Positions 5,147 to 28,551 of a stretch of DNA of 33,237 nt are shown here, in pieces. A model generated the notes under the pieces. The model searched no databases. It was not told where the DNA came from and saw only the letters and a list, made by a program, of their open reading frames with translations. Position numbers and translations under genes: made by a program. Source of the stretch: a virus; IMG/VR virus record IMGVR_UViG_3300045988_048147, positions 1-33,237 of that record; one strand, 5' to 3'. Each line of letters begins with the position of its first letter. Positions within the stretch are counted from its first letter, which is position 1.

Positions 5147-6330
5147 GTAAGAGACGGCGGGCGCGGCCGGCGCCCAGAGAGCGCCCTAAGCAGACCCGGA
5201 GCATGGCATGGCTGTGTGCCCCGGATACATACGACAGCCTTTGCTGCCAGGGCTATGTGAGCCTGGCGGCAAATCCGGAGATCTGCGCCGGTGTTGATAC
5301 CATCGCCCGGCTGGTGGGGTCCATGACCATCCACCTGATGGAGAACCGGGAGGACGGGGACGTCCGCATCCTCAATGAGCTGAGCCGCAAGATCGACATC
5401 GAGCCCAATGCCTACATGACACGAGCGGACTTCGTTCACTGGATTGTGCGGACCATGTACCTGGAGGGAAACGGCAACGCTGTGGTGTGGCCACGTACTC
5501 GTGCGGGCATCATCCAGGACCTGCAGCCCATCCCGTCGGCCTTTGTTGCATTTATCCCGGACGGCTGGGGCTACCGGGTAATCGTCAACGGCAAAGAGTA
5601 TGATCCGGACGACGTGCTCCACTTCGTTCTTAATCCGGATCCGTTGTATCCCTGGCTTGGGACGGGGTATCGGATCTCCCTGGCGGACGTGGCCCAGAAC
5701 TTAAAACAGGCAGCGACCACCCAGAAAGGGTTCATGGAATCCAAGTGGAAACCGTCCCTGATCGTCAAGGTGGATGCTCTGACGGAGGAATTTTCCAGCC
5801 CGGAGGGGCGCCGGGTACTGCTGGAGAGCTACATTGACACCGCCCGAGCCGGAGAGCCCTGGATGATCCCGGCGGAGCAGTTTGAGGTGGAGCAGGTGAA
5901 GCCCCTGACCCTGAGTGATCTGGCCCTGGACGCCATGGTGACGCTGGACAAGCGGACCGTGGCGGCGGTGCTGGGAATCCCGGCTTTCGTGCTGGGCGTG
6001 GGAGACTTCAATCGGGACGCCTGGAACAACTTCATCAACACAACGATCATGCCCCTGGCCCGGAACATGGAGCAGGAGCTGACGAAAAAGCTGCTGTATT
6101 CGCCCGGCTGGTTTTTCCGGTTCAACTCCTGGAGCCTGTTTTCCTACTCCATCAACGAGCTGGTGAGCGCCGGTGCGGAGATGGTGGACCGGATGGCCCT
6201 GCGGCGGAACGAGTGGCGCGGCTGGGTCAACCTGCCGCCGGATCCGGAGATGAACCAACTGCTGGCCCTGGAGAACTACATCCCTGTAGAAAAACTGGGA
6301 GACCAAAATAAACTCAACGGAGGTGAGTGA
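5131..6330 (+). CDS. Portal protein, HK97 family
   Basis: Position after terL and overall HK97-portal-like sequence ([22 protein letters not shown]...). Start uncertain: GTG 5131, GTG 5143 or ATG 5203. Confidence 0.85.
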
Positions 6331-19067: not shown

Positions 19068-19328
19068 CTAGGGATATAACTGAATTTTTAGAGGGTTCGA
19101 ATCTTTTTCTCTAACTCCGGCCTCCGTTTGGAGGTCGGGATTTTTTTGCTTTTCAGCATTTATCCGTTCAATAGCTCTCTTGATTTTTTCTTCTGTTCCA
19201 ATTTGAGGTTTAGTACCAGAAAGGAGGTTTTTAATTGTCGTTTGGTGAACACCGGACAATTTTGCAATTCTGTATTCCGTTAGATTGTTTTTCTGCATTT
19301 CCTCTTGTAGCCATTGTGAAAAATCCAT
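19068..19328 (-). CDS. cI-like repressor, HTH only, no S24 peptidase domain
   Basis: The only convincing minus-strand gene. Internal Met start chosen because the longer ORF would overlap the promoter. MDFSQWLQEEMQKNNLTEYRIAKLSGVHQTTIKNLLSG. Confidence 0.75.
   Translation of the reverse strand: MDFSQWLQEEMQKNNLTEYRIAKLSGVHQTTIKNLLSGTKPQIGTEEKIKRAIERINAEKQKNPDLQTEAGVREKDSNPLKIQLYP
19117..19147 (+). terminator. Rho-independent terminator of the late/lysis operon
   Basis: CCGGCCTCC-GTTT-GGAGGTCGG (9 bp, one G-T pair), then GATTTTTTT. It lies inside the 3' end of the convergent repressor ORF. Confidence 0.7.
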
Positions 19329-19342
19329 AATAAATACCCCTA

Positions 19343-19409
19343 AAAATAGTCTAATATGACTACGAGAAAATAGCCTAAAAATAGTTGACAATAATCTGAA
19401 AATAGTCTA
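19343..19409. promoter_or_regulatory. Four direct operator-like repeats AAAATAG(T/C)(C/T)(T/G)A
   Basis: Copies at 19343-19353, 19367-19377, 19378-19388 and 19399-19409 in the divergent repressor/cro intergenic region. Confidence 0.6.
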
Positions 19410-19413
19410 TAAT
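19385..19413 (+). promoter_or_regulatory. Consensus sigma-70-type promoter facing the cro-like gene
   Basis: TTGACA (19385-19390), a 17-nt spacer, then TATAAT (19408-19413). Overlapped by operator copies 3 and 4. Confidence 0.7.
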
Positions 19414-19543
19414 TGGTCTTGCAATGAGGCGCAAAACACCAAGCCCGTTGATAGACAACCGGCTAAATTCTGTGAACTTTATCCTCCAAAATTAGAGTAT
19501 CACAGCATTATCCGTTTGTCAAGAAACACTCTAATTTGAGGGG

Positions 19544-19750
19544 GTGAACTTTTTGCTATCTAAAAACCTAGCTAGATTGCAAGCAGAGCGGGGGGAGACA
19601 AATTACAGGCTTGCAAAGGAACTCGGGGTACATCAAACCACTATCCAGAATTGGAAGAACGGTATCAGGCCGCATCCTGTTTATTTAAGACTTTTGGCAG
19701 AACACTACGAAACTACTGTAGACGAGCTTCTTTCGGATGATCCTGAATAA
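19544..19750 (+). CDS. Cro-like XRE-family HTH regulator
   Basis: NYRLAKELGVHQTTIQNWKNG (the repressor shares the GVHQTTI recognition-helix core). Start is GTG 19544 or TTG 19553, after GAGGGGG. Confidence 0.8.
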   Translation: MNFLLSKNLARLQAERGETNYRLAKELGVHQTTIQNWKNGIRPHPVYLRLLAEHYETTVDELLSDDPE

Positions 19751-19866
19751 AAGATGCCCCCGCCGATGCTGACACCACCGGCGAGGGCTGCGGAACCTAT
19801 TGAAGCGACCAACAGGCCCGCGAGGTTATTATACACGCCTCCGGGTCAAATGACAAGGAGGTTTTT

Positions 19867-20034
19867 ATGAACGAAAAAGACAGCATCAAAGACCTGGAGT
19901 CCCAGGCGCGCAACACCAAACACCTGATGGACAAGTTAAACCGAGCGGCCTACGGCATGACCTTTGACGAGGCAATCCGGCTGGGCAAAGAAAATCCCCC
20001 GCCGTGCAGCGAACACGACGAGGGCAAGGATTGA
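19867..20034 (+). CDS. Hypothetical 55-aa protein
   Basis: Below the ORF-track cutoff. AAGGAGG RBS 7 nt upstream. MNEKDSIKDLESQARNTKHLMDKLNRAAYGMTFDEAIRLGKENPPPCSEHDEGKD. Confidence 0.5.
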   Translation: MNEKDSIKDLESQARNTKHLMDKLNRAAYGMTFDEAIRLGKENPPPCSEHDEGKD

Positions 20035-20100
20035 GCGAGTACAAACAATCCCTTTGGATACAGTATATCGCCTCCAAGGGGAGAAATCAAGGAGGTATTT

Positions 20101-20313
20101 ATGATTGAAGCATTAACTGCGGCCGAAGCAACAGAAGTCCTTCGCAATGCGGGGCTGCGTATTACTCCGGAGACTATCCGGGATGGCATCCAAAAGAAAG
20201 TCTTCCCGTTCGGGGACTGCGTAATGGCCGAGGACGGCAAGAAAGTCAAATGGTGCTATATCTATAAGGCTTTGCTAGATCGCTGGATCGCCGAAAGAAC
20301 GGTGAGCGCATGA
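20101..20313 (+). CDS. Excisionase-like / MerR-type HTH DNA-binding protein
   Basis: RBS AAGGAGG. LTAAEATEVLRNAGLRITPETIRDGI...YIYKALLDRWIAE resembles the Xis/HTH_17 pattern. Confidence 0.45.
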   Translation: MIEALTAAEATEVLRNAGLRITPETIRDGIQKKVFPFGDCVMAEDGKKVKWCYIYKALLDRWIAERTVSA

Positions 20314-20414
20314 GCATTGAAATGAGTATAGTGGCGGCAATCATTATCATTGGAACGGCCAAGGTTGCCGGATGGTTCATGCGCTTCCTTTCCTGGCTGG
20401 AGGGAGAGCGGTGA
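20310..20414 (+). CDS. 34-aa single-pass membrane peptide
   Basis: ATGA overlap upstream and GTGA overlap downstream. [34 protein letters not shown]. Confidence 0.4.
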   Translation: MSIEMSIVAAIIIIGTAKVAGWFMRFLSWLEGER

Positions 20415-20587
20415 AAGTCGGAGACAAGCTGTGCCTGGAACCCACCATCCCCACCAGCGCCTTTGTGACTGCAAGGACAGGCCCGCAGCCCTGCCGGGTG
20501 GTCTCCATCAACGAGCGGCACCATCATTTCACCGTGGAGTTCGATTTCCCCGAAGGCAGCTTCCGGGAGACCTACAAGGAGGAATAA
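20411..20587 (+). CDS. Hypothetical 58-aa protein
   Basis: GTG start after GGAGGGAGAG. Internal start within track ORF 20372-20587. Confidence 0.45.
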
Positions 20588-20590
20588 CGC

Positions 20591-21301
20591 ATGGACAAAC
20601 AAGAGTTGAAAAATATTTTGGACAAGCACCTTAAATGGCTACGAGGCGAAGATGGCGGAGAACGGGCCGACCTGTTCGAGGCCAACCTGTTCGAGGCCAA
20701 CCTGTCCAGGGCCAACCTGTCCGGGGCCAACCTGTCCAGGGCCAACCTGTCCGGGGCCAACCTGTTCGAGGCCAACCTGTCCAGGGCCAACCTGTCCGGG
20801 GCCAACCTGTCCGGGGCCAACCTGTTCGAGGCCAACCTGTCCAGGGCCGACCTGTTCGAGGCCAACCTGTCCGGGGCCAACCTGTTCGAGGCCAACCTGT
20901 CCAGGGCCAACCTGTCCAGGGCCAACTACATTGAAAAGGCAAAAAATTTATTTTATCCCATTGCCTGCCCGGAAATCGGCGCTTTTGTCGGCTGGAAAAA
21001 GGCAAGGGTCAAAACCAGCGGTCATGAGTGCATTGTAAAGCTGGAAATTACCGAAGATGCCGTGCGCAGTTCCGGAACAGGCCGGAAGTGCCGCTGCTCA
21101 AAGGCAACCGTTTTGGAGATTCAGGATTTAGAGGGGATTGTATTGGAGCAGGTCGCCGTCAGTGATAGAGATGAGAACTTCCATTACATTCCCGGAACTG
21201 TGGTCTCCGTTTCGGATTTCGACGAAAACCGCTGGAACGAGTGCAGCACGGGCATCCATTTCTATATTACCCGAGAAGAAGCGGTGAGGCATATCCTATG
21301 A
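20591..21301 (+). CDS. Pentapeptide-repeat protein fused to an uncharacterised C-terminal globular domain
   Basis: 17 consecutive A(N/D)L(F/S)(E/R/G) pentapeptides, then [16 protein letters not shown]...[12 protein letters not shown]...[14 protein letters not shown]. Confidence 0.85.
20666..20926 (+). repeat. Tandem 15-bp repeat, 17 units plus a 6-bp partial unit, with three unit variants
   Basis: GCC(A/G)ACCTG + TTCGAG / TCCAGG / TCCGGG. Apart from the variable hexamer, the only substitutions are A to G in units 1 and 13. Confidence 0.95.
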
Positions 21302-21885
21302 AAAAGCTGACCCGCGAAGAGCGGCGGCGCCGGAGCCAGAGGCGGCAGCTGATTACATATCTCCTGTTTCTGATCTTGCTGCTGGCGTGGCTGGGAAGCT
21401 ACCTGATTATGACGGTGAAAGCAGATCGGCCCGCCATGCACAAGCCGGAGCCCGCCACGCAGGACGGCAGCCTACCCGGCGACGATACCCCGGCCACCAC
21501 TCGCTGTTATCTGACAGCAGAAAAGATCGAGGAAAACGAGAATGAGCTTATAGAAGCTGCTTTGCTGGCCCGGTCTCACAAGCTGGAGGACGTGACCATC
21601 ACCTTCTACTGCTGCGAGAAACGGCCCCACATCTGTGGGACAGGCTCCGGCATCACAGCCAGCGGCAGGCGTGTAACGCCCTATGTGAGCTGCGCCGTGG
21701 ATACGGACATTATACCGCTGGGCAGCACCATCATGATCGAGTACAACGGCGAGATGGTTTATCTGAGAGCTGATGATACCGGTCCGGCAGTCGAGGGGGA
21801 CCATATTGACATTGCCGTCAAGGGGCACTCAGAAGCTTTATCCCTGGGCGTCCAGACGGCAGACATTTGGTGGTGCGAGGAATGA
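21298..21885 (+). CDS. Membrane-anchored 3D-domain protein (MltA/RlpA-like double-psi beta-barrel)
   Basis: N-terminal basic stretch plus TM segment [21 protein letters not shown]-terminus TASGRRV...[10 protein letters not shown]...[15 protein letters not shown] carries the three conserved Asp of the 3D domain. Confidence 0.7.
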
Positions 21886-22076
21886 ACGCACATGCGAAAC
21901 GCCCAAGAGGCGAGTTGGGTCCCTGCCCAAGATGCGGATTGTATTCCGGCCAGCGATTGGCAATCGAGGGCAACCCGGATATGTTCCTGGTGGCCTGCGA
22001 CGCCTGCGGATGGCGAACTCGGAAATTTACTGATATAAATCACGCGGTGAGAGCTTGGAATGAAGGGAGAACATGA
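21882..22076 (+). CDS. Lar-family zinc-ribbon protein, paralogue 2
   Basis: ATGA overlap. CPRCG...CDACGW...AVRAWNEG. Confidence 0.65.
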   Translation: MNAHAKRPRGELGPCPRCGLYSGQRLAIEGNPDMFLVACDACGWRTRKFTDINHAVRAWNEGRT

Positions 22077-22077
22077 C

Positions 22078-22563
22078 ATGACACTTTACGAGATCGATAA
22101 GGCCATTACTGATCTGGCAGACCCGGAGACTGGAGAGATCACCGACTTTGAGGCGCTGGACAATCTCCAAATGGCGCGGGACCAGAAGATCGAGAACATC
22201 GCCTGTTACTACAAGAACTTGGTTTCCGATGCGGAAGCCATCAAGGCGGAGAAGGAGGCCCTGGCGGAGCGGCAGAAAGTGGCAGAGAACAAGGCGGCGC
22301 GGCTCAAGGAGTATCTCTCTTACGCGCTACACGGGGAGAAGTTCTCCACGCCGAAATGCGCGGTGACGTTCCGAAAGACCACTTCCGTAAATGTGGACAA
22401 CCCTTCCGCCGCCATCGAGTGGGCGGAGCTGAACGGGCATAAGGAGTGCATCCGGTACAAAGCCCCGGAAATCAGCAAGAGCGAGCTGGGCAAGGTCCTA
22501 AAGGCTGGGCAGGAAGTGCCTGGGGCTGTCTTGGTTGAAGGGATTTCTGTGGGGGTGAAGTGA
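22078..22563 (+). CDS. Siphovirus Gp157-family protein
   Basis: MTLYEIDKAITDL...KIENIACYYKNLVSDAEAIKAEKEALAERQKVAENKAARLKEYL matches the Gp157 pattern. Confidence 0.7.
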   Translation: MTLYEIDKAITDLADPETGEITDFEALDNLQMARDQKIENIACYYKNLVSDAEAIKAEKEALAERQKVAENKAARLKEYLSYALHGEKFSTPKCAVTFRKTTSVNVDNPSAAIEWAELNGHKECIRYKAPEISKSELGKVLKAGQEVPGAVLVEGISVGVK

Positions 22564-23168
22564 TGAACCTTGACATTTACAACAATGTCCGGGCCGTCCC
22601 CGCAGAGGCCAAGAAGGAGATCAGAGGTGGGCGGCTGAACGGAAAGACCGATATCAACCCTATGTGGCGCATCAAGAAGCTGACGGAGCAATTCGGCCCA
22701 TGCGGCATTGGCTGGAAATACACCATTGACCGGGAGTGGCTGGAGACCGGAGCCAACGGGGAAATCTCCGCATTCATGGACATCTCACTGTACTACAAAT
22801 ACAACGGCGAGTGGTCCGAGGCAGTTCCCGGTACCGGCGGCAGCGCCTTTATCACAAAAGAGAAGAGCGGTCTGTACACCTCTGACGAGTGCTACAAGAT
22901 GGCCTTGACGGATGCCCTCTCCGTGGCTTGCAAGGCCCTTGGGATCGCCGCTGACGTGTACTGGGACAAGGACAAGACGAAGTATGACAAGACCGATATT
23001 GCGGCGAAAGTCGATGTCACTACATGCGAGAAATGCGGGAAGGTCTTGGAAGCGTACAAGGACTCCAAAGGCGTCACGGTGTCGATCATGAAGCACGTGA
23101 ACGCCAGCATGGAGAAGTTCGGGCACGTCTACTGCCTGGACTGTATTAAGGAGATGAACCATGATTGA
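22560..23168 (+). CDS. Rad52-like (Sak/Sak3-type) single-strand annealing protein with a C-terminal zinc ribbon
   Basis: GRLNGKTDINPMWRIKKLTEQFGPCGIGWKY...DALSVACKALGIAADVY. C-terminus CEKCG...CLDC. Start is 22560 (GTG) or 22563 (ATG). Confidence 0.6.
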   Translation: MMNLDIYNNVRAVPAEAKKEIRGGRLNGKTDINPMWRIKKLTEQFGPCGIGWKYTIDREWLETGANGEISAFMDISLYYKYNGEWSEAVPGTGGSAFITKEKSGLYTSDECYKMALTDALSVACKALGIAADVYWDKDKTKYDKTDIAAKVDVTTCEKCGKVLEAYKDSKGVTVSIMKHVNASMEKFGHVYCLDCIKEMNHD

Positions 23169-26568: not shown

Positions 26569-26785
26569 ACAATATCTAGTCCCCATCCGGCGTTACTCTG
26601 CTAACCCCTGCATGGATTGCTGCCTCCCAATCAGCAAGTGTCCATGGCTGCGGGAAGAGAAACCAGTACCGGGCTGGACAGCTAAGAAACGGACGTTTGT
26701 TGTTGGGAGAAACCGGGGCGGGCGGAAAACATGGGTGACTACATACGCCATCGAGAGCTGCCCGCTGGAAAGGAAGAGAGAATGA
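26555..26785 (+). CDS. Cys-rich hypothetical protein (putative zinc-binding)
   Basis: CMDCCLPISKCPW...GW...IESCP. Confidence 0.5.
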   Translation: MGELEQYLVPIRRYSANPCMDCCLPISKCPWLREEKPVPGWTAKKRTFVVGRNRGGRKTWVTTYAIESCPLERKRE

Positions 26786-27084
26786 TGGATGATATGAAGC
26801 GCGCCCTGTTGGGCGACCACGAGGCAGCCAAGCGGCTGACGGATGCGGGTGTGTTGCTGCCGTGTCCTATGTGCGGAGCCACAATAGACAGACAAGCCGA
26901 AAAAGACACCCTTATGCTGAATGAGTTTCAACTCGGAAAATGGTGTTTCATACATTTCTGCAATGAAACTTGTGACGGCGTAACGATTTACGGTAAAACC
27001 GAAGCGGAGGTTATCGCAAAATGGAACACTCGCGCGCCGATTCTGAGCGGGTCAGAGAGTGAGATGCTGGATGCCAAAGATTGA
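26782..27084 (+). CDS. Lar-family zinc-ribbon protein, paralogue 3
   Basis: ATGA overlap. LLPCPMCG...FCNETCDG...AEVIAKWNTRAP. Confidence 0.65.
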   Translation: MMDDMKRALLGDHEAAKRLTDAGVLLPCPMCGATIDRQAEKDTLMLNEFQLGKWCFIHFCNETCDGVTIYGKTEAEVIAKWNTRAPILSGSESEMLDAKD

Positions 27085-27862
27085 ACTATATCACGATAAT
27101 TTTCAAAACTTCAAGCGGTACAACATCCCAAAGGCCCAACTTGTGATTGCAGATATCCCGTATAACATCGGAGCGGATGCCTATGCCAGCAATCCCGTGT
27201 GGTATCAGGGCGGAGACAACAAAAATGGGGAGAGCAAACTGGCAAAGCAGAGTTTCTTCCACACAGATGGGACATTCAAAATTGCGGAATATATGCATTT
27301 TTGCAACCGTCTCTTGAAAAAAGAGCCAAAAGAAAGGGGACAGGCCCCGGCCATGATTGTATTCTGCGCATTTGAACAGATGCAGACAGTGATTGACTAT
27401 GGAAAGCGATATGGCTTTTTACATAACTATCCCCTGTTCTTCGTCAAGAACTATTCCGCGCAGGTTTTGAAAGCCAATATGAAGATCGTTGGTGCCACAG
27501 AGTTTGCCATCGTGTTGTACCGAAACAAACTGCCAAAATTCCGCAATAACGGCCATATGGTATTTAACTGGTTTGAATGGCACAGGGACAGTGCCAAGGA
27601 CTACCCCAAAATCCATCCAACACAAAAGCCCGTTGGATTGCTGAAGCGGTTAATCGAAGTCTTTACAGATCCGGGGGATATTGTGGTTGACCCGTGTGCT
27701 GGTAGTGGGGCCACCCTTCGGGCCGCTTATGAGCTGGGGCGAAACTCTTATGGGTTCGAGGTTGACCGGAATTTCTATCAAAAGGCAGTAAAAGAAATGA
27801 TTAAACCGGCGACAAGAGCGCCAGAGTTTGAGCAGATGGAGATACTGGAGGGGATGGAATGA
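27071..27862 (+). CDS. DNA methyltransferase, beta-class N6-adenine or N4-cytosine (N6_N4_Mtase family)
   Basis: Motif IV DIPYNIG lies N-terminal; HPTQKP and motif I VVDPCAGSGATLRAA lie C-terminal. Confidence 0.88.
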   Translation: MPKIELYHDNFQNFKRYNIPKAQLVIADIPYNIGADAYASNPVWYQGGDNKNGESKLAKQSFFHTDGTFKIAEYMHFCNRLLKKEPKERGQAPAMIVFCAFEQMQTVIDYGKRYGFLHNYPLFFVKNYSAQVLKANMKIVGATEFAIVLYRNKLPKFRNNGHMVFNWFEWHRDSAKDYPKIHPTQKPVGLLKRLIEVFTDPGDIVVDPCAGSGATLRAAYELGRNSYGFEVDRNFYQKAVKEMIKPATRAPEFEQMEILEGME

Positions 27863-28551
27863 AGCCGATTTATGAGCCGAAAGGGAAAGCCAAAGAGTAC
27901 GGTGACTATGCGCTGAATATCTACACTGGGTGCCCGCACCGTTGCTATTATTGCTTTGCGCCGAGTGTATTGCATCGAGACCGAGAGAAGTTTCACGCAG
28001 ATGTCCGGCCCCGTGATGGAATTGTAGAGGCGACCAAGGCACAGTTGGAGAGGGAGCACATTACCGGAAGAATTATTCACCTGTGTTTTACTTGTGACCC
28101 ATATCCGACCGGCTACGATACCACGCCGACACGGGAGATCATCAAAGTTTTGAAGGAATACGGGAACCGCGTCCAGATTCTCACAAAGGGGGATGGGAGC
28201 CGGGACTTCGATCTGCTAGACAGCGAGGATTGGTACGGCGTGACCATTGACGGCTCCGCCAGCGGCCCATACGCGCCGATCGACCGGATGGCAGACCTGT
28301 ATGCCGCAAAGTGCAGGGGAATCAAGACCTGGTGCTCCTTTGAACCTGTCCTATACGCTGATGCAGTGCTAGACTGTATCGAAAATTACCATGACATCTT
28401 CGACAAGGTGAAAATTGGGAAGCTGAACTACTACCCGTCGAATATAGAATGGGCAAAGTTTGGGCGAGAAGCCGAAGCACTTTGTCAGCGACTTGGCCTG
28501 GACTACTACATTAAGGAAAGTTTGCGGAAAGAAATAGAGGCCCACCCATGA
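27859..28551 (+). CDS. Radical SAM protein, SplB/COG1533-like minimal barrel
   Basis: ATGA overlap with the methyltransferase. LNIYTGCPHRCYYCFAP gives a CX3CX2C cluster-binding motif at aa 25-32. Confidence 0.75.
   Translation: MKPIYEPKGKAKEYGDYALNIYTGCPHRCYYCFAPSVLHRDREKFHADVRPRDGIVEATKAQLEREHITGRIIHLCFTCDPYPTGYDTTPTREIIKVLKEYGNRVQILTKGDGSRDFDLLDSEDWYGVTIDGSASGPYAPIDRMADLYAAKCRGIKTWCSFEPVLYADAVLDCIENYHDIFDKVKIGKLNYYPSNIEWAKFGREAEALCQRLGLDYYIKESLRKEIEAHP

Follow-up and report, generated by a model that had tools for sequence, protein, structure and literature searches.

The PRP-DUF5758 gene and its early operon

The window analysed here, the whole 33,237 nucleotides of IMG/VR virus record IMGVR_UViG_3300045988_048147, carries at positions 20591 to 21301 of the plus strand a gene, here called PRP-DUF5758, which encodes a protein of 236 amino acids and has an AAGGAGG ribosome-binding site 8 nt upstream. 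The identical protein was found on three contigs from independent samples. According to our analysis, it is a cytoplasmic two-module protein, in which a cap helix and a beta-helix are flexibly linked to a conserved DUF5758 domain. The N-terminal cap (20591 to 20665, plus strand) comprises 25 aa with a helix over residues 3 to 18 in the AF2 model; its length is 25 aa without exception in the best 120 relatives, and an H..WL-type motif occurs in it in 87 of 150 family representatives. The repeat array follows (20666 to 20920, plus strand; 17 units of 15 bp forming a beta-helix of about 4.4 coils), and then a segment from 20921 to 20956 on the same strand, which consists of a degenerate 18th unit, ANYIE (20921 to 20935), and a linker helix (AF2, residues 114 to 121), and where the pLDDT drops to 63 to 79. 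The DUF5758 domain itself is encoded at 20957 to 21283 of the plus strand and spans residues 123 to 231.

The initial annotation had described a pentapeptide-repeat protein and had tentatively named DUF5758 for its C-terminal part, and profile searches bear out both. The Pfam family Pentapeptide (PF00805) matches in three stretches with 100.1 bits against a cut-off of 20.2 (E = 4.5e-29), while an HMM search of the C-terminal domain gave PF19062 (E = 8.6e-34; 116.1 bits against a cut-off of 26.9) over model positions 2 to 105 of 105; PF19062 is present in all of the best 120 homologues. The structure prediction that had also been proposed gave a confident beta-helix in the full-protein AF2 model (pLDDT 92, pTM 0.58), with a strand or bridge for every five residues from residue 27 to 107. 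[quoted passage not shown] The low pTM and a dip in confidence at residues 105 to 125 suggest that the model consists of two independent modules. Open reading frames in other frames across the array (20635-20934 and 20652-21038, and on the minus strand 20572-20925 and 20631-21005) were rejected as by-products of the repeat, since the repeat unit is free of stop codons.

PRP-DUF5758 belongs to the early lytic operon of a temperate phage whose hosts are gut Oscillospiraceae of the Dysosmobacter type. The first gene of this operon (19544 to 19750, plus strand) encodes a Cro-type helix-turn-helix (HTH) protein (HTH_3, E = 3.2e-8, 33.9 bits against 23), which is annotated as HTH_3 in L001 as well. 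On the minus strand, 19068 to 19391 holds an HTH-like ORF, a candidate immunity repressor with a borderline HTH_3 score (22.4 bits against 23, E = 1.3e-4) and 58% identity to the rightward HTH protein across 26 aa; in relatives, the matching position is occupied by a repressor. This ORF is divergent from the early operon. A promoter-like site at 19385 to 19413 of the plus strand, identified by consensus match (TTGACA-17-TATAAT, 12/12), overlaps an 11-bp tandem repeat of four copies at 19366 to 19408 and would serve the rightward operon. Its full consensus match between the divergent HTH genes, together with the lack of any plus-strand terminator-like site between 19546 and the PRP gene, supports the early-operon position.

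Downstream, the start of a gene for a membrane-anchored 3D-domain protein (21298 to 21885, plus strand; PF06725, E = 1.9e-8) overlaps the PRP stop codon (ATGA at 21298), and the two genes are translationally coupled. A 3D homologue lies directly downstream of the PRP gene in 42 loci, at 58 to 100% amino acid identity, and is a conserved partner in the clade. It is followed by a small Lar-like ORF (21867 to 22076, plus strand), which falls below the cut-offs of both PF14354 (25.3 bits against 28.6) and TIGR03655 (27 against 39.6) and matches phrog_599 with E = 7.4e-6. Of the coupled string proposed in the initial annotation, the 3D-domain neighbour is hence confirmed and the Lar paralogue is not. 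Neither the full protein nor its C-terminal domain, and neither of the downstream 3D and Lar-like products, matched any of the defence models in PADLOC-DB at E of 1 or less. The mosaic make-up of the genomes shows in the 3D neighbour, whose identity ranges from 58 to 100% where that of the C-terminal domain is 92 to 100%.

The PRP gene is found beside a repressor/Cro switch also in cluster E mycobacteriophages, in L042 and L043, and in a Dysosmobacter welbionis prophage, and judging from this gene order the family is located where the early operon begins, by the immunity switch, in unrelated temperate phages. Homologues occur in 152 cluster E (Kostyavirus) records, for example as gp58 of Mycobacterium phage Cjw1. 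They share with the window protein the Pentapeptide (PF00805) and DUF5758 (PF19062) architecture, the C-terminal motifs WKK, RKCR, and FD/E.DRW.EC..GIHF..TR.EA, and a position a few genes into a rightward operon, beside the immunity repressor. However, the cluster E protein has a fixed length of 281 aa (279 in NoSleep, where the gap lies in the C-terminal domain), its repeats have diverged and form no strong tandem repeat in the DNA, its C-terminal domain is about 45% identical, and no 3D-domain gene follows it. A megablast search with 19500 to 22600 against the GenBank phage collection returned nothing, so the locus is without a close isolate there, and a scan of GTDB genomes yielded only five loci and no further isolate arrays. 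Where family members are annotated in phage records, they are named as hypothetical or pentapeptide-repeat proteins only.

A repeat array homogenised at the DNA level and variable in length

The array had been reported as a run of 17 units, and 20666 to 20920 is indeed made of exactly 17 in-frame, head-to-tail units of 15 bp. Units 1 and 13 have the core GCCGACCTG, the other 15 have GCCAACCTG, and the hexamer after the core is TTCGAG (six units), TCCAGG (six), or TCCGGG (five), which makes only four distinct unit sequences, coding for A(N/D)LFE, ANLSR, and ANLSG. As had been stated, two substitutions occur outside the hexamer; both are A-to-G changes. TRF placed the repeat at 20664 to 20926 with a period of 15 (17.5 copies, score 386) and also reported a period of 60 (score 428).

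Across 286 units of 19 related arrays, every Ala is encoded by GCC and every Leu by CTG. Unit positions 1 to 3, 6 to 9, and 15 are invariant, position 5 varies in one unit and position 10 in three, and the common variation is found at positions 4, 11, 12, 13, and 14, where it alters just three outward-facing residues (N/D, S/F, and G/R/E/W), while the core residues Ala and Leu and their codons are constant across arrays. Elsewhere in the window, GCC accounts for 45% of Ala codons, CTG for 54% of Leu codons, and AGG for 8.5% of Arg codons, and the part of the gene outside the array uses five different Leu codons. At these frequencies, the chance of 17 GCC codons out of 17 is about 1e-6, that of 17 CTG out of 17 about 3e-5, and that of 6 AGG out of 6 about 4e-7. 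Codon bias is therefore no explanation, and the homogenisation of the array extends to its DNA.

Such uniformity could mean that the array works also, or mainly, as a nucleic acid, for instance as a recombination hotspot, as iterons bound by a protein, or through mRNA structure, with the DNA itself under selection. Four of the five third-codon positions vary in none of the 286 units, although pS in the adjacent domain is 0.27, and every unit junction creates a GGCC site, so that the 255 bp contain 16 of them, where the density elsewhere is 6.6 per kb. Still, we deem this reading extremely improbable: the frame codes for a classic A(D/N)LXX repeat that is modelled with confidence as a beta-helix, array exchange by recombination between mosaic phages accounts for the shared codons equally well, and distant relatives encode the same protein repeat by quite different DNA units. 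These distant family members (42 to 58% identity) carry 15-bp arrays of their own built from different codon sets, and 39 of 150 representatives have runs of at least eight strict units, in which the variable residues come from a small set particular to the lineage.

The suggestion that the repeats are conserved as DNA and that unit number varies holds among relatives, which carry 13 to 29 units in the best 120 protein matches. Among 31 relatives whose C-terminal domains are identical, no two share the same array (13 to 23 units), which means that change is far more rapid in the array than in the sequence on either side. Within the 90% cluster of the query itself, alleles range from 14 to 24 units, and several of them occur on three to nine independent contigs. 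The C-terminal domain has a pN/pS of 0.26, a value which points to purifying selection.

Since these unit counts come from short-read assemblies, which often break at the array, individual counts are provisional and need confirmation by long reads. The length polymorphism might then be mostly an assembly artefact, the true array being stable and only the point differences between unit types genuine. A contig boundary falls inside the array in 14 of 39 close-relative IMG/VR loci, the sole close GTDB match likewise begins inside it, and repeat proteins are known to drop out of viral assemblies (PMC9238414). Moreover, some alleles differ by one block of eight units (22 against 14, and 24 against 16), a pattern that could also stem from a loop left out in assembly, and arrays with 31 units (L016 and L017), 13 units (L026), and 4 units (L038) have a prefix and a suffix in common. 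Several observations nevertheless make this explanation highly unlikely. The longest exact repeat inside the window array is 58 bp, below the assembler k of 119, and L002, an independent contig that SPAdes built from a different sample, does not differ from the window over 10,960 bp, array included, so MEGAHIT (k = 119) and SPAdes recovered the same array from different samples and an artefact in the window is unlikely. The 31-unit array is identical in L016 and L017, again from different samples; the recurrence of alleles on three to nine contigs each argues in the same direction, as do two D. welbionis genomes with megabase contigs, which hold 27 and 21 units. Finally, unit order and type differ in many arrays, which collapse cannot create.

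Genuine turnover could nonetheless be neutral, with the helix a mere spacer or stalk for DUF5758 and recombination-prone repeats drifting in it with no adaptive meaning. Unit counts take all values from 13 to 29 in the best 120 relatives, and multiples of four, that is, whole coils, are not favoured. Net charge of the array, by charge count, is -2 in the window (pI 4.9) and -13 to +5 in close relatives. The exposed residues are no more autocorrelated at lag 4 than at other lags, with Glu as a weak exception, and face-specific stripes with a four-unit, one-coil periodicity were therefore rejected despite the 60-bp period reported by TRF. A wandering charge and the lack of a lag-4 pattern could indicate that the surface is unconstrained instead of selected; the rate of turnover alone is a mutational property, and with just five variable nucleotide positions an excess of non-synonymous changes is statistically indecisive. 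The cluster E phages, moreover, function with a fixed, diverged array, which makes hypervariability unnecessary for the function of the family. Against drift, the same few exposed variants are each kept at 10 to 33% across lineages that differ at 27% of flank synonymous sites, arrays have stayed homogenised in many independent lineages, each of which has two or three alternatives exactly at the exposed positions, and the shortest array among the best 120 relatives has 13 units, none falling below. On balance, we regard neutral instability as possible but doubtful. A mechanism of the DGR type was discarded, as the variable sites are fixed A/G, C/T, and G/A transitions without adenine targeting; no reverse transcriptase is present among the genes called in L001.

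Comparison with known pentapeptide-repeat proteins and the DUF5758 fold

The initial annotation further proposed that the protein acts as a DNA mimic. In this reading, the helix would imitate B-DNA in the manner of Qnr, MfpA, or AlbG and bind gyrase, topoisomerase IV, or DNA-targeting defence proteins. [quoted passage not shown] However, the NCBIfam scores lie far below the family cut-offs, at 36.6 bits against 240 for the Qnr model NF033086, 21 to 37 against 425 to 500 for the Qnr subfamily models, and 23.4 against 360 for the MfpA model NF000349, and the top structural matches are canonical cyanobacterial proteins, neither Qnr nor MfpA. Characterised topoisomerase-acting pentapeptide-repeat proteins are all head-to-head dimers formed via a C-terminal helix (PMC8145042). 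In the AF2 model of PRP-DUF5758, a short helix at 114 to 121 follows the array at that end and leads into a 126-aa globular domain, the additional DUF5758 module, so that a dimerisation helix of this kind may be lacking. Loop insertions are missing. Nor is the array consistently acidic, since its charge of -2 here rises to +5 in relatives and 29 of the best 120 arrays are neutral or positive, and a length that varies from 13 to 31 units is at odds with the fixed size which a mimic needs. The tblastn matches in Listeria, Staphylococcus, and Rheinheimera phages cover the repeat region only, lack DUF5758, and were rejected as homologues. Beyond the shared fold, nothing favours DNA mimicry for PRP-DUF5758, and the proposal is deemed unlikely. 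A literature search combining pentapeptide repeats with anti-defence, gyrase, cluster E, and concerted evolution gave nothing specific.

A likeness in layout is offered by the type III effectors SopA and NleL, and by PipB/PipB2, in which an N-terminal pentapeptide-repeat beta-helix with a targeting or recognition role is fused to a C-terminal functional domain. NleL and SopA, identified by Foldseek, are solved precedents for a pentapeptide-repeat helix followed by a catalytic domain, while the PipB/PipB2 models match the repeats weakly. In SopA and NleL, however, the C-terminal domain is an E3 ligase of the HECT-like type, and DUF5758 has no match in the PDB; besides, they are secreted bacterial effectors whose site of action is the eukaryotic cell, with repeats that have diverged and are stable.

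The family to which PRP-DUF5758 belongs comprises about 3,450 sequence clusters, and a full-text literature search for "DUF5758" found no paper. The domain modelled separately reached a pLDDT of 87.1 and a pTM of 0.81. Foldseek found no relative of this model in the PDB (best E = 0.34, TM 0.22), and the domain profile matched no PDB sequence below E = 1; matches to an alpha-kinase, LolB, and a glucanase were dismissed as noise, with a probability of 0.12 or less. In BFVD, phage and giant-virus proteins carry the fold C-terminal to RING fingers or to repeats of the pentapeptide, MORN, or HEAT type, which agrees with the remark in the initial annotation that the domain accompanies pentapeptide repeats in phages and giant viruses. 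Such giant-virus proteins, for example A0A3G4ZS89, A0A3G5A878, and A0A1V0SK66, share the C-terminal fold with TM of 0.6 to 0.78 and E down to 1.7e-8, and they carry it, too, at the C terminus of repeat-containing proteins; they differ from PRP-DUF5758 in stemming from eukaryotic viruses, often with other repeat types, and in having only 15 to 35% sequence identity. As judged from these predicted structures, the DUF5758 fold is a portable module behind several kinds of solenoids. Residues that are invariant or at least 90% conserved in both alignments are C126, G130, F132, K136, A157, R159, S161, C167, R168, Y199, G202, R214, E217, C218, G221, I222, H223, and F224. Going by this conservation, C167, C218, and H223 possibly form a Cys/His metal or catalytic site, which we propose as a candidate.

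A proposed conserved module on a diversifying scaffold

Taken as a whole, the observations are best explained by a conserved effector or docking module carried on a diversifying binding scaffold, a function which we infer with a probability of about one half. The array units are kept uniform as DNA, with gain, loss, and reordering of units proceeding far faster than mutation of the flanks. New alleles would arise when direct repeats recombine or slip during replication, and a single-strand-annealing recombination module which the phage itself encodes may assist in this. A constant domain attached to rods that differ in length and surface suggests a fast-evolving binding protein; the helix would thus be a diversifying surface for a variable macromolecule of the host or of a competitor, whereas the invariant DUF5758 domain would supply a constant activity or docking function. 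The protein would act at the very start of the lytic cycle, probably in host takeover or anti-defence.

A more specific form of this explanation, to be taken as a tentative proposal, is that the array is a combinatorial recognition surface. Each unit would present three repeat-variable exposed residues drawn from N/D x S/F x G/R/E/W, phage populations would reshuffle the order and number of units by recombination between identical DNA units, and the reshuffled arrays would keep pace with polymorphism in a host target, for instance a defence protein, while DUF5758 stays constant and is possibly Cys/His-dependent. This arrangement would be analogous to TAL effectors and variable lymphocyte receptors. 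TAL effectors have near-identical DNA repeats with repeat-variable residues in a 34-aa helical repeat and a known DNA-reading code. The likeness is one of genetic architecture only (near-identical units, few polymorphic exposed codons, and reshuffling by recombination), as the fold is unrelated, a 34-aa helical repeat there against a 5-aa beta-helix unit here. If true, the combinatorial reading would define a new class of diversifying viral effectors, independent of reverse transcriptase and extending from gut prophages to mimiviruses.

Pentapeptide-repeat proteins are abundant and few have a known function; DUF5758 has none, despite its roughly 3,450 clusters spread over phages, prophages, and giant viruses. 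What is new here is the apparent placement of the family, in temperate phages that are unrelated, among the opening genes of the early lytic operon, the occurrence in many lineages of homogenised repeat DNA in which unit number and exposed residues change fast while the C-terminal domain is frozen, and the C-terminal fold as a probable portable module behind several solenoids. Because the array breaks short-read assemblies, the gene is under-represented in metagenomic catalogues and its length there is unreliable. Cjw1 gp58, from a phage of Mycobacterium smegmatis, provides a genetically tractable homologue, and PRP-DUF5758 is a concrete candidate, amenable to testing, for a host-interaction protein that diversifies in prophages of the human gut.

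The pentapeptide-repeat gene and its array

According to our analysis, the ORF at 20591..21301 (+ strand), preceded by an AAGGAGG ribosome-binding site, encodes a 236-aa pentapeptide-repeat protein (PRP). Within it, 20666-20920 splits into exactly 17 in-frame 15-bp units, which start with GCCAACCTG in 15 of 17 cases and with GCCGACCTG in two (units 1 and 13) and end with the hexamers TTCGAG (6 units), TCCAGG (6), or TCCGGG (5). The array thus uses just four unit types, which encode A(N/D)LFE, ANLSR, and ANLSG, and a degenerate unit 18 (ANYIE) follows directly. TRF reported a period of 15 with 17.5 copies (score 386), plus a weaker 60-bp super-period; this and the unit dissection bear out all the sequence details of the array in the initial annotation. 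Codon bias is not the cause of the uniformity, since the 16 other genes of the window use mixed codons (GCC for 45% of Ala, CTG for 54% of Leu, and AGG for 8.5% of Arg) and five different Leu codons occur in the PRP gene outside the array. Assembly error is unlikely as well, because the longest exact repeat inside the array is 58 bp while the contig was assembled at k=119, and because L002, a SPAdes contig from a different sample, is 100% identical to the window over 10,960 bp including the array.

Across the array (20572-21038, both strands), all but one of the six frames are open, giving repetitive ORFs of 99-128 aa (GQPVR, PTCPG, LDRLA, GWPRT), which we rejected as genes since they are by-products of the stop-free repeat unit and could be mis-called. 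GGCC arises at each unit junction of 20666-20920 (16 sites in 255 bp versus 6.6 per kb elsewhere), while R units generate CCAGG and G units CCGG.

The Pfam Pentapeptide family matches across the array (E=4.5e-29), and DUF5758 (PF19062) covers residues 123-231 over its full model length (E=8.6e-34), which confirms the tentative assignment in the initial annotation. In an AlphaFold2 model built from a 55-sequence alignment (mean pLDDT 92, pTM 0.58), a cap helix (3-18) opens the protein and is followed by a regular beta-helix with one strand or bridge per five residues (27-107); a short helix (114-121) then leads into a C-terminal domain rich in beta structure. Since pTM is only 0.58 and confidence drops around the junction, the model suggests two modules joined by a flexible link. 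With this model, Foldseek retrieved only pentapeptide beta-helices from the PDB, led by canonical cyanobacterial ones (Np275/276, E=1e-7), with MfpA, Qnr, and AlbG near E=1e-3.

Variation among relatives

Array units turn over much faster than their flanks. The best 120 homologues (70-92% overall identity) range from 216 to 296 aa in exact 5-aa steps, and since their N-terminal 25 aa and C-terminal 126 aa are fixed in length, all the difference lies in the array, whose 13-29 units confirm the expected variation in repeat number among related phages. The 31 proteins with a C-terminal domain identical to the query all have different arrays (31/31, 13-23 units), and the query's own 90% cluster holds alleles of 14, 15, 16, 17, 18, 22, and 24 units, several of them found on 3-9 independent contigs each. 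The C-terminal domain is under purifying selection, with pN/pS of 0.26 overall and, for the group that has diverged most, about 0.09. A block of 8 units, RgFRGGFF by our unit code, separates the 22- from the 14-unit and the 24- from the 16-unit alleles, the exact product that unequal crossing-over between repeats would give. Alleles would arise by slippage or recombination between direct repeats, plausibly assisted by the phage's own recombination genes.

Some of the unit counts may be affected by assembly. Of 39 close-relative IMG/VR loci, 14 start within the array, as does the sole close GTDB-genome match, and the related-phage contigs L003, L005, L008, L011, L022, L023, L027-L029, L031, L033, L034, L036, L037, and L069 end within it; short-read assemblers therefore often fail at this gene, which is a systematic breakpoint and is predicted to be truncated or absent in many viral catalogues. 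A long-read virome study reports that long reads exceed assemblies 26-fold in pentapeptide repeats and 37-fold in MORN repeats, because short-read assembly fails at repeats (PMC9238414). Loop skipping by the assembler could yield the 8-unit deletions as well as the 31, 13, and 4 units of the relatives L016/L017, L026, and L038. However, independent samples yielded identical arrays (the window with L002, L016 with L017), several alleles were each found on more than one contig, and two D. welbionis genomes with megabase contigs have 27 and 21 units; moreover, many arrays differ in unit order and type, which collapse cannot produce. The polymorphism is thus real in kind, while single short-read counts need confirmation.

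The array of the relative L041 is frame-shifted at about 5880-6000 (PTCPG repeated) and then returns to ANLFG, with the match starting at 6001, and is either a pseudogene or an indel error inside the repeat. L004 and L007 (matches at 5755 and 6001) have just 288 and 213 nt of open in-frame sequence ahead of the C-terminal domain, although the contig continues, and a search upstream of that domain gave no MDK-type start; the two loci may use variant start sites or carry arrays that are interrupted.

Among 286 units from 19 distinct related arrays, unit positions 1-3 (GCC), 6, 7-9 (CTG), and 15 never vary, and positions 5 and 10 vary in only 1 and 3 units. Common variation falls on position 4 (A/G, rarely T; N/D/Y), 11 (C/T; S/F), 13 (G/A; G/R), and 14 (G/A; G/E), and on position 12 (C/T), synonymously, in 9% of units. 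Of 2,278 units compared at the protein level, 99.6% have Ala as residue 1, and a single unit lacks Leu as residue 3. In pentapeptide-repeat geometry, the core is filled by Ala at i-2 and Leu at i, with the side chains at i-1, i+1, and i+2 facing out, and array variation is therefore entirely on the surface. A one-coil periodicity of exposed residues was looked for in the arrays and not found. The main rival to a functional surface, that the helix is a neutral, unstable spacer, we consider rather unlikely.

The initial annotation proposed that the helix may be a DNA mimic, which we regard as improbable. Qnr and MfpA family scores are far under the cut-offs, array length is not conserved, and the surface is not consistently acidic, with array net charge spanning -13 to +5 among relatives. 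Furthermore, every characterised topoisomerase-acting PRP has a C-terminal dimerising end, whereas this protein is predicted to have a globular domain there.

The DUF5758 domain and its family

The DUF5758 domain is conserved, portable between scaffolds, and without a solved relative. Modelled separately (pLDDT 87, pTM 0.81), its best PDB match by Foldseek has E=0.34 and TM 0.22, and a profile search of PDB sequences gave no matches. In a viral predicted-structure library, 39 proteins match it at E<=1e-3 (TM 0.6-0.78), all uncharacterised, from mimiviruses, klosneuviruses, pithoviruses, and phages; in these proteins the fold follows RING fingers or repeats of the pentapeptide, MORN, or HEAT type. 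Among diverse family members, C126, K136, R159, S161, C167, R168, Y199, R214, E217, C218, and H223 belong to the residues that are invariant or conserved to at least 90% in both alignments, a pattern more in keeping with a putative metal or active site than with a passive scaffold.

When the 126-aa C-terminal region was searched exhaustively with HMMER, it matched 3,449 clusters (50% identity) at E<=1e-3 and 1,852 at E<=1e-10, with the domain nearly always at the extreme C-terminus of 150-350 aa proteins. The family is known and uncharacterised: the architecture is in Pfam, and cluster E homologues are annotated 'pentapeptide repeat protein'. Among isolated phages, 152 of the 158 records with the domain are cluster E mycobacteriophages (Kostyavirus; Cjw1, Porky, 244, and others); matches in Listeria, Staphylococcus, and Rheinheimera phages were rejected as homologues because the repeats alone match. 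Close relatives of the gene come from human-gut metagenomes and Dysosmobacter welbionis genomes. The loci L052 and L060 and the representative proteins P0163 and P0170 seemingly have DUF5758 alone or very few repeats (ORFs of about 100-136 aa), and the domain can therefore exist without the solenoid.

Distant members (42-58% C-terminal-domain identity) mostly have their own 15-bp DNA arrays from different codons, such as GCAAACCTTAGCGGG x23 in L043 and GGTGCCAACCTCGCG x20 (93% match) in L057, with comparable arrays in L048, L051, L053, and L055; many lineages therefore evolved or kept homogenisation independently. In 39 of 150 diverse representatives there are stretches of 8 or more strict A-x-L-x-x units, using 4-15 unit types with lineage-specific residue sets at the exposed positions. 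Unlike the window's homogenised array, cluster E repeats are diverged, without a strong TRF repeat. Five of the six phages examined have a protein of 281 aa; the NoSleep protein, at 279 aa, differs in the C-terminal domain and not in the repeats. Hypervariability is therefore common in the family and not required.

Array codons are exactly the same in lineages whose C-terminal domains differ from the window by 27% at synonymous sites; the loci concerned, besides 20666-20920, are L015, L025, L028, L030, L031, L034, L037, and L039. Either phages swap arrays by recombination, or constraint or selection acts on the nucleotide sequence itself. The adjacent 3D protein, 58-100% identical versus 92-100% for the PRP C-terminal domain, indicates that the genomes are mosaic and exchange is possible.

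Operon position and possible role

A perfect sigma-70-type promoter match (TTGACA-17-TATAAT, 19385-19413, + strand) has a leftward HTH-like ORF on one side (19068-19391, borderline HTH_3) and, on the other, a Cro-type HTH gene that runs rightward (19544-19750). It is overlapped by four copies of the 11-bp tandem repeat GAAAATAGTCT (19366-19408, TRF score 51), which, judged from sequence, looks like a candidate operator array of a lysis/lysogeny switch. The PRP gene is the sixth ORF of the operon behind this promoter match, and no + strand terminator-like site was found between it and the Cro-type gene.

Downstream, the start of the 3D-domain (MltA/Rpf-like) gene (21298-21885), which has an N-terminal membrane anchor, overlaps the PRP stop codon, and the two genes are translationally coupled. 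The 3D-domain gene is the constant downstream partner in this clade and far more divergent than the PRP C-terminal domain; an early, membrane-anchored protein predicted to act on the cell wall is unusual. Of the coupled string proposed earlier, the 3D-domain part holds, while the Lar paralogue (21867-22076) is sub-threshold. Beyond it lie a Gp157/Gam-like gene and an exonuclease. A second Lar-like ORF (26731-27084), weak or below threshold, immediately precedes genes for an N6/N4 DNA methyltransferase (27059-27862) and a radical-SAM-like protein (27859-28551), both from the gene calls of the matching contig L001.

A position beside the repressor/Cro region recurs in unrelated phages. Cluster E mycobacteriophages have an immunity repressor (-), two tiny ORFs, and PRP-DUF5758; L042 has an ImmA protease (-), a CI-type repressor (-), Cro (+), and PRP-DUF5758; L043 has an integrase (-), a LexA-like S24 repressor (-), Cro (+), and PRP-DUF5758; and L046 has HTH (-), HTH (+), small ORFs, Gp157, and PRP-DUF5758. 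Among the close relatives, the integrated prophage at locus L068 has an integrase, HTH repressor (-), HTH (+), small ORFs, PRP-DUF5758, the 3D-domain gene, ERF, SSB, and DnaB. Because of this recurrent operon position, expression of the PRP gene is predicted to be early.

In the searchable literature we found no account of population-level hypervariability of DNA-homogenised arrays limited to exposed residues, of a conserved immediate-early position of PRP-DUF5758 across phyla, or of DUF5758 as a portable module that phages and giant viruses carry behind different kinds of solenoid. The gene encodes a two-module early-operon protein in which DNA-identical units encode a predicted beta-helix, whose changes are limited to exposed residues. 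We give roughly even odds (about 0.5) to the reading that the beta-helix would be a diversifying binding surface and DUF5758 a constant effector or docking activity, with a role early in the lytic cycle in taking over the host or countering its defences.
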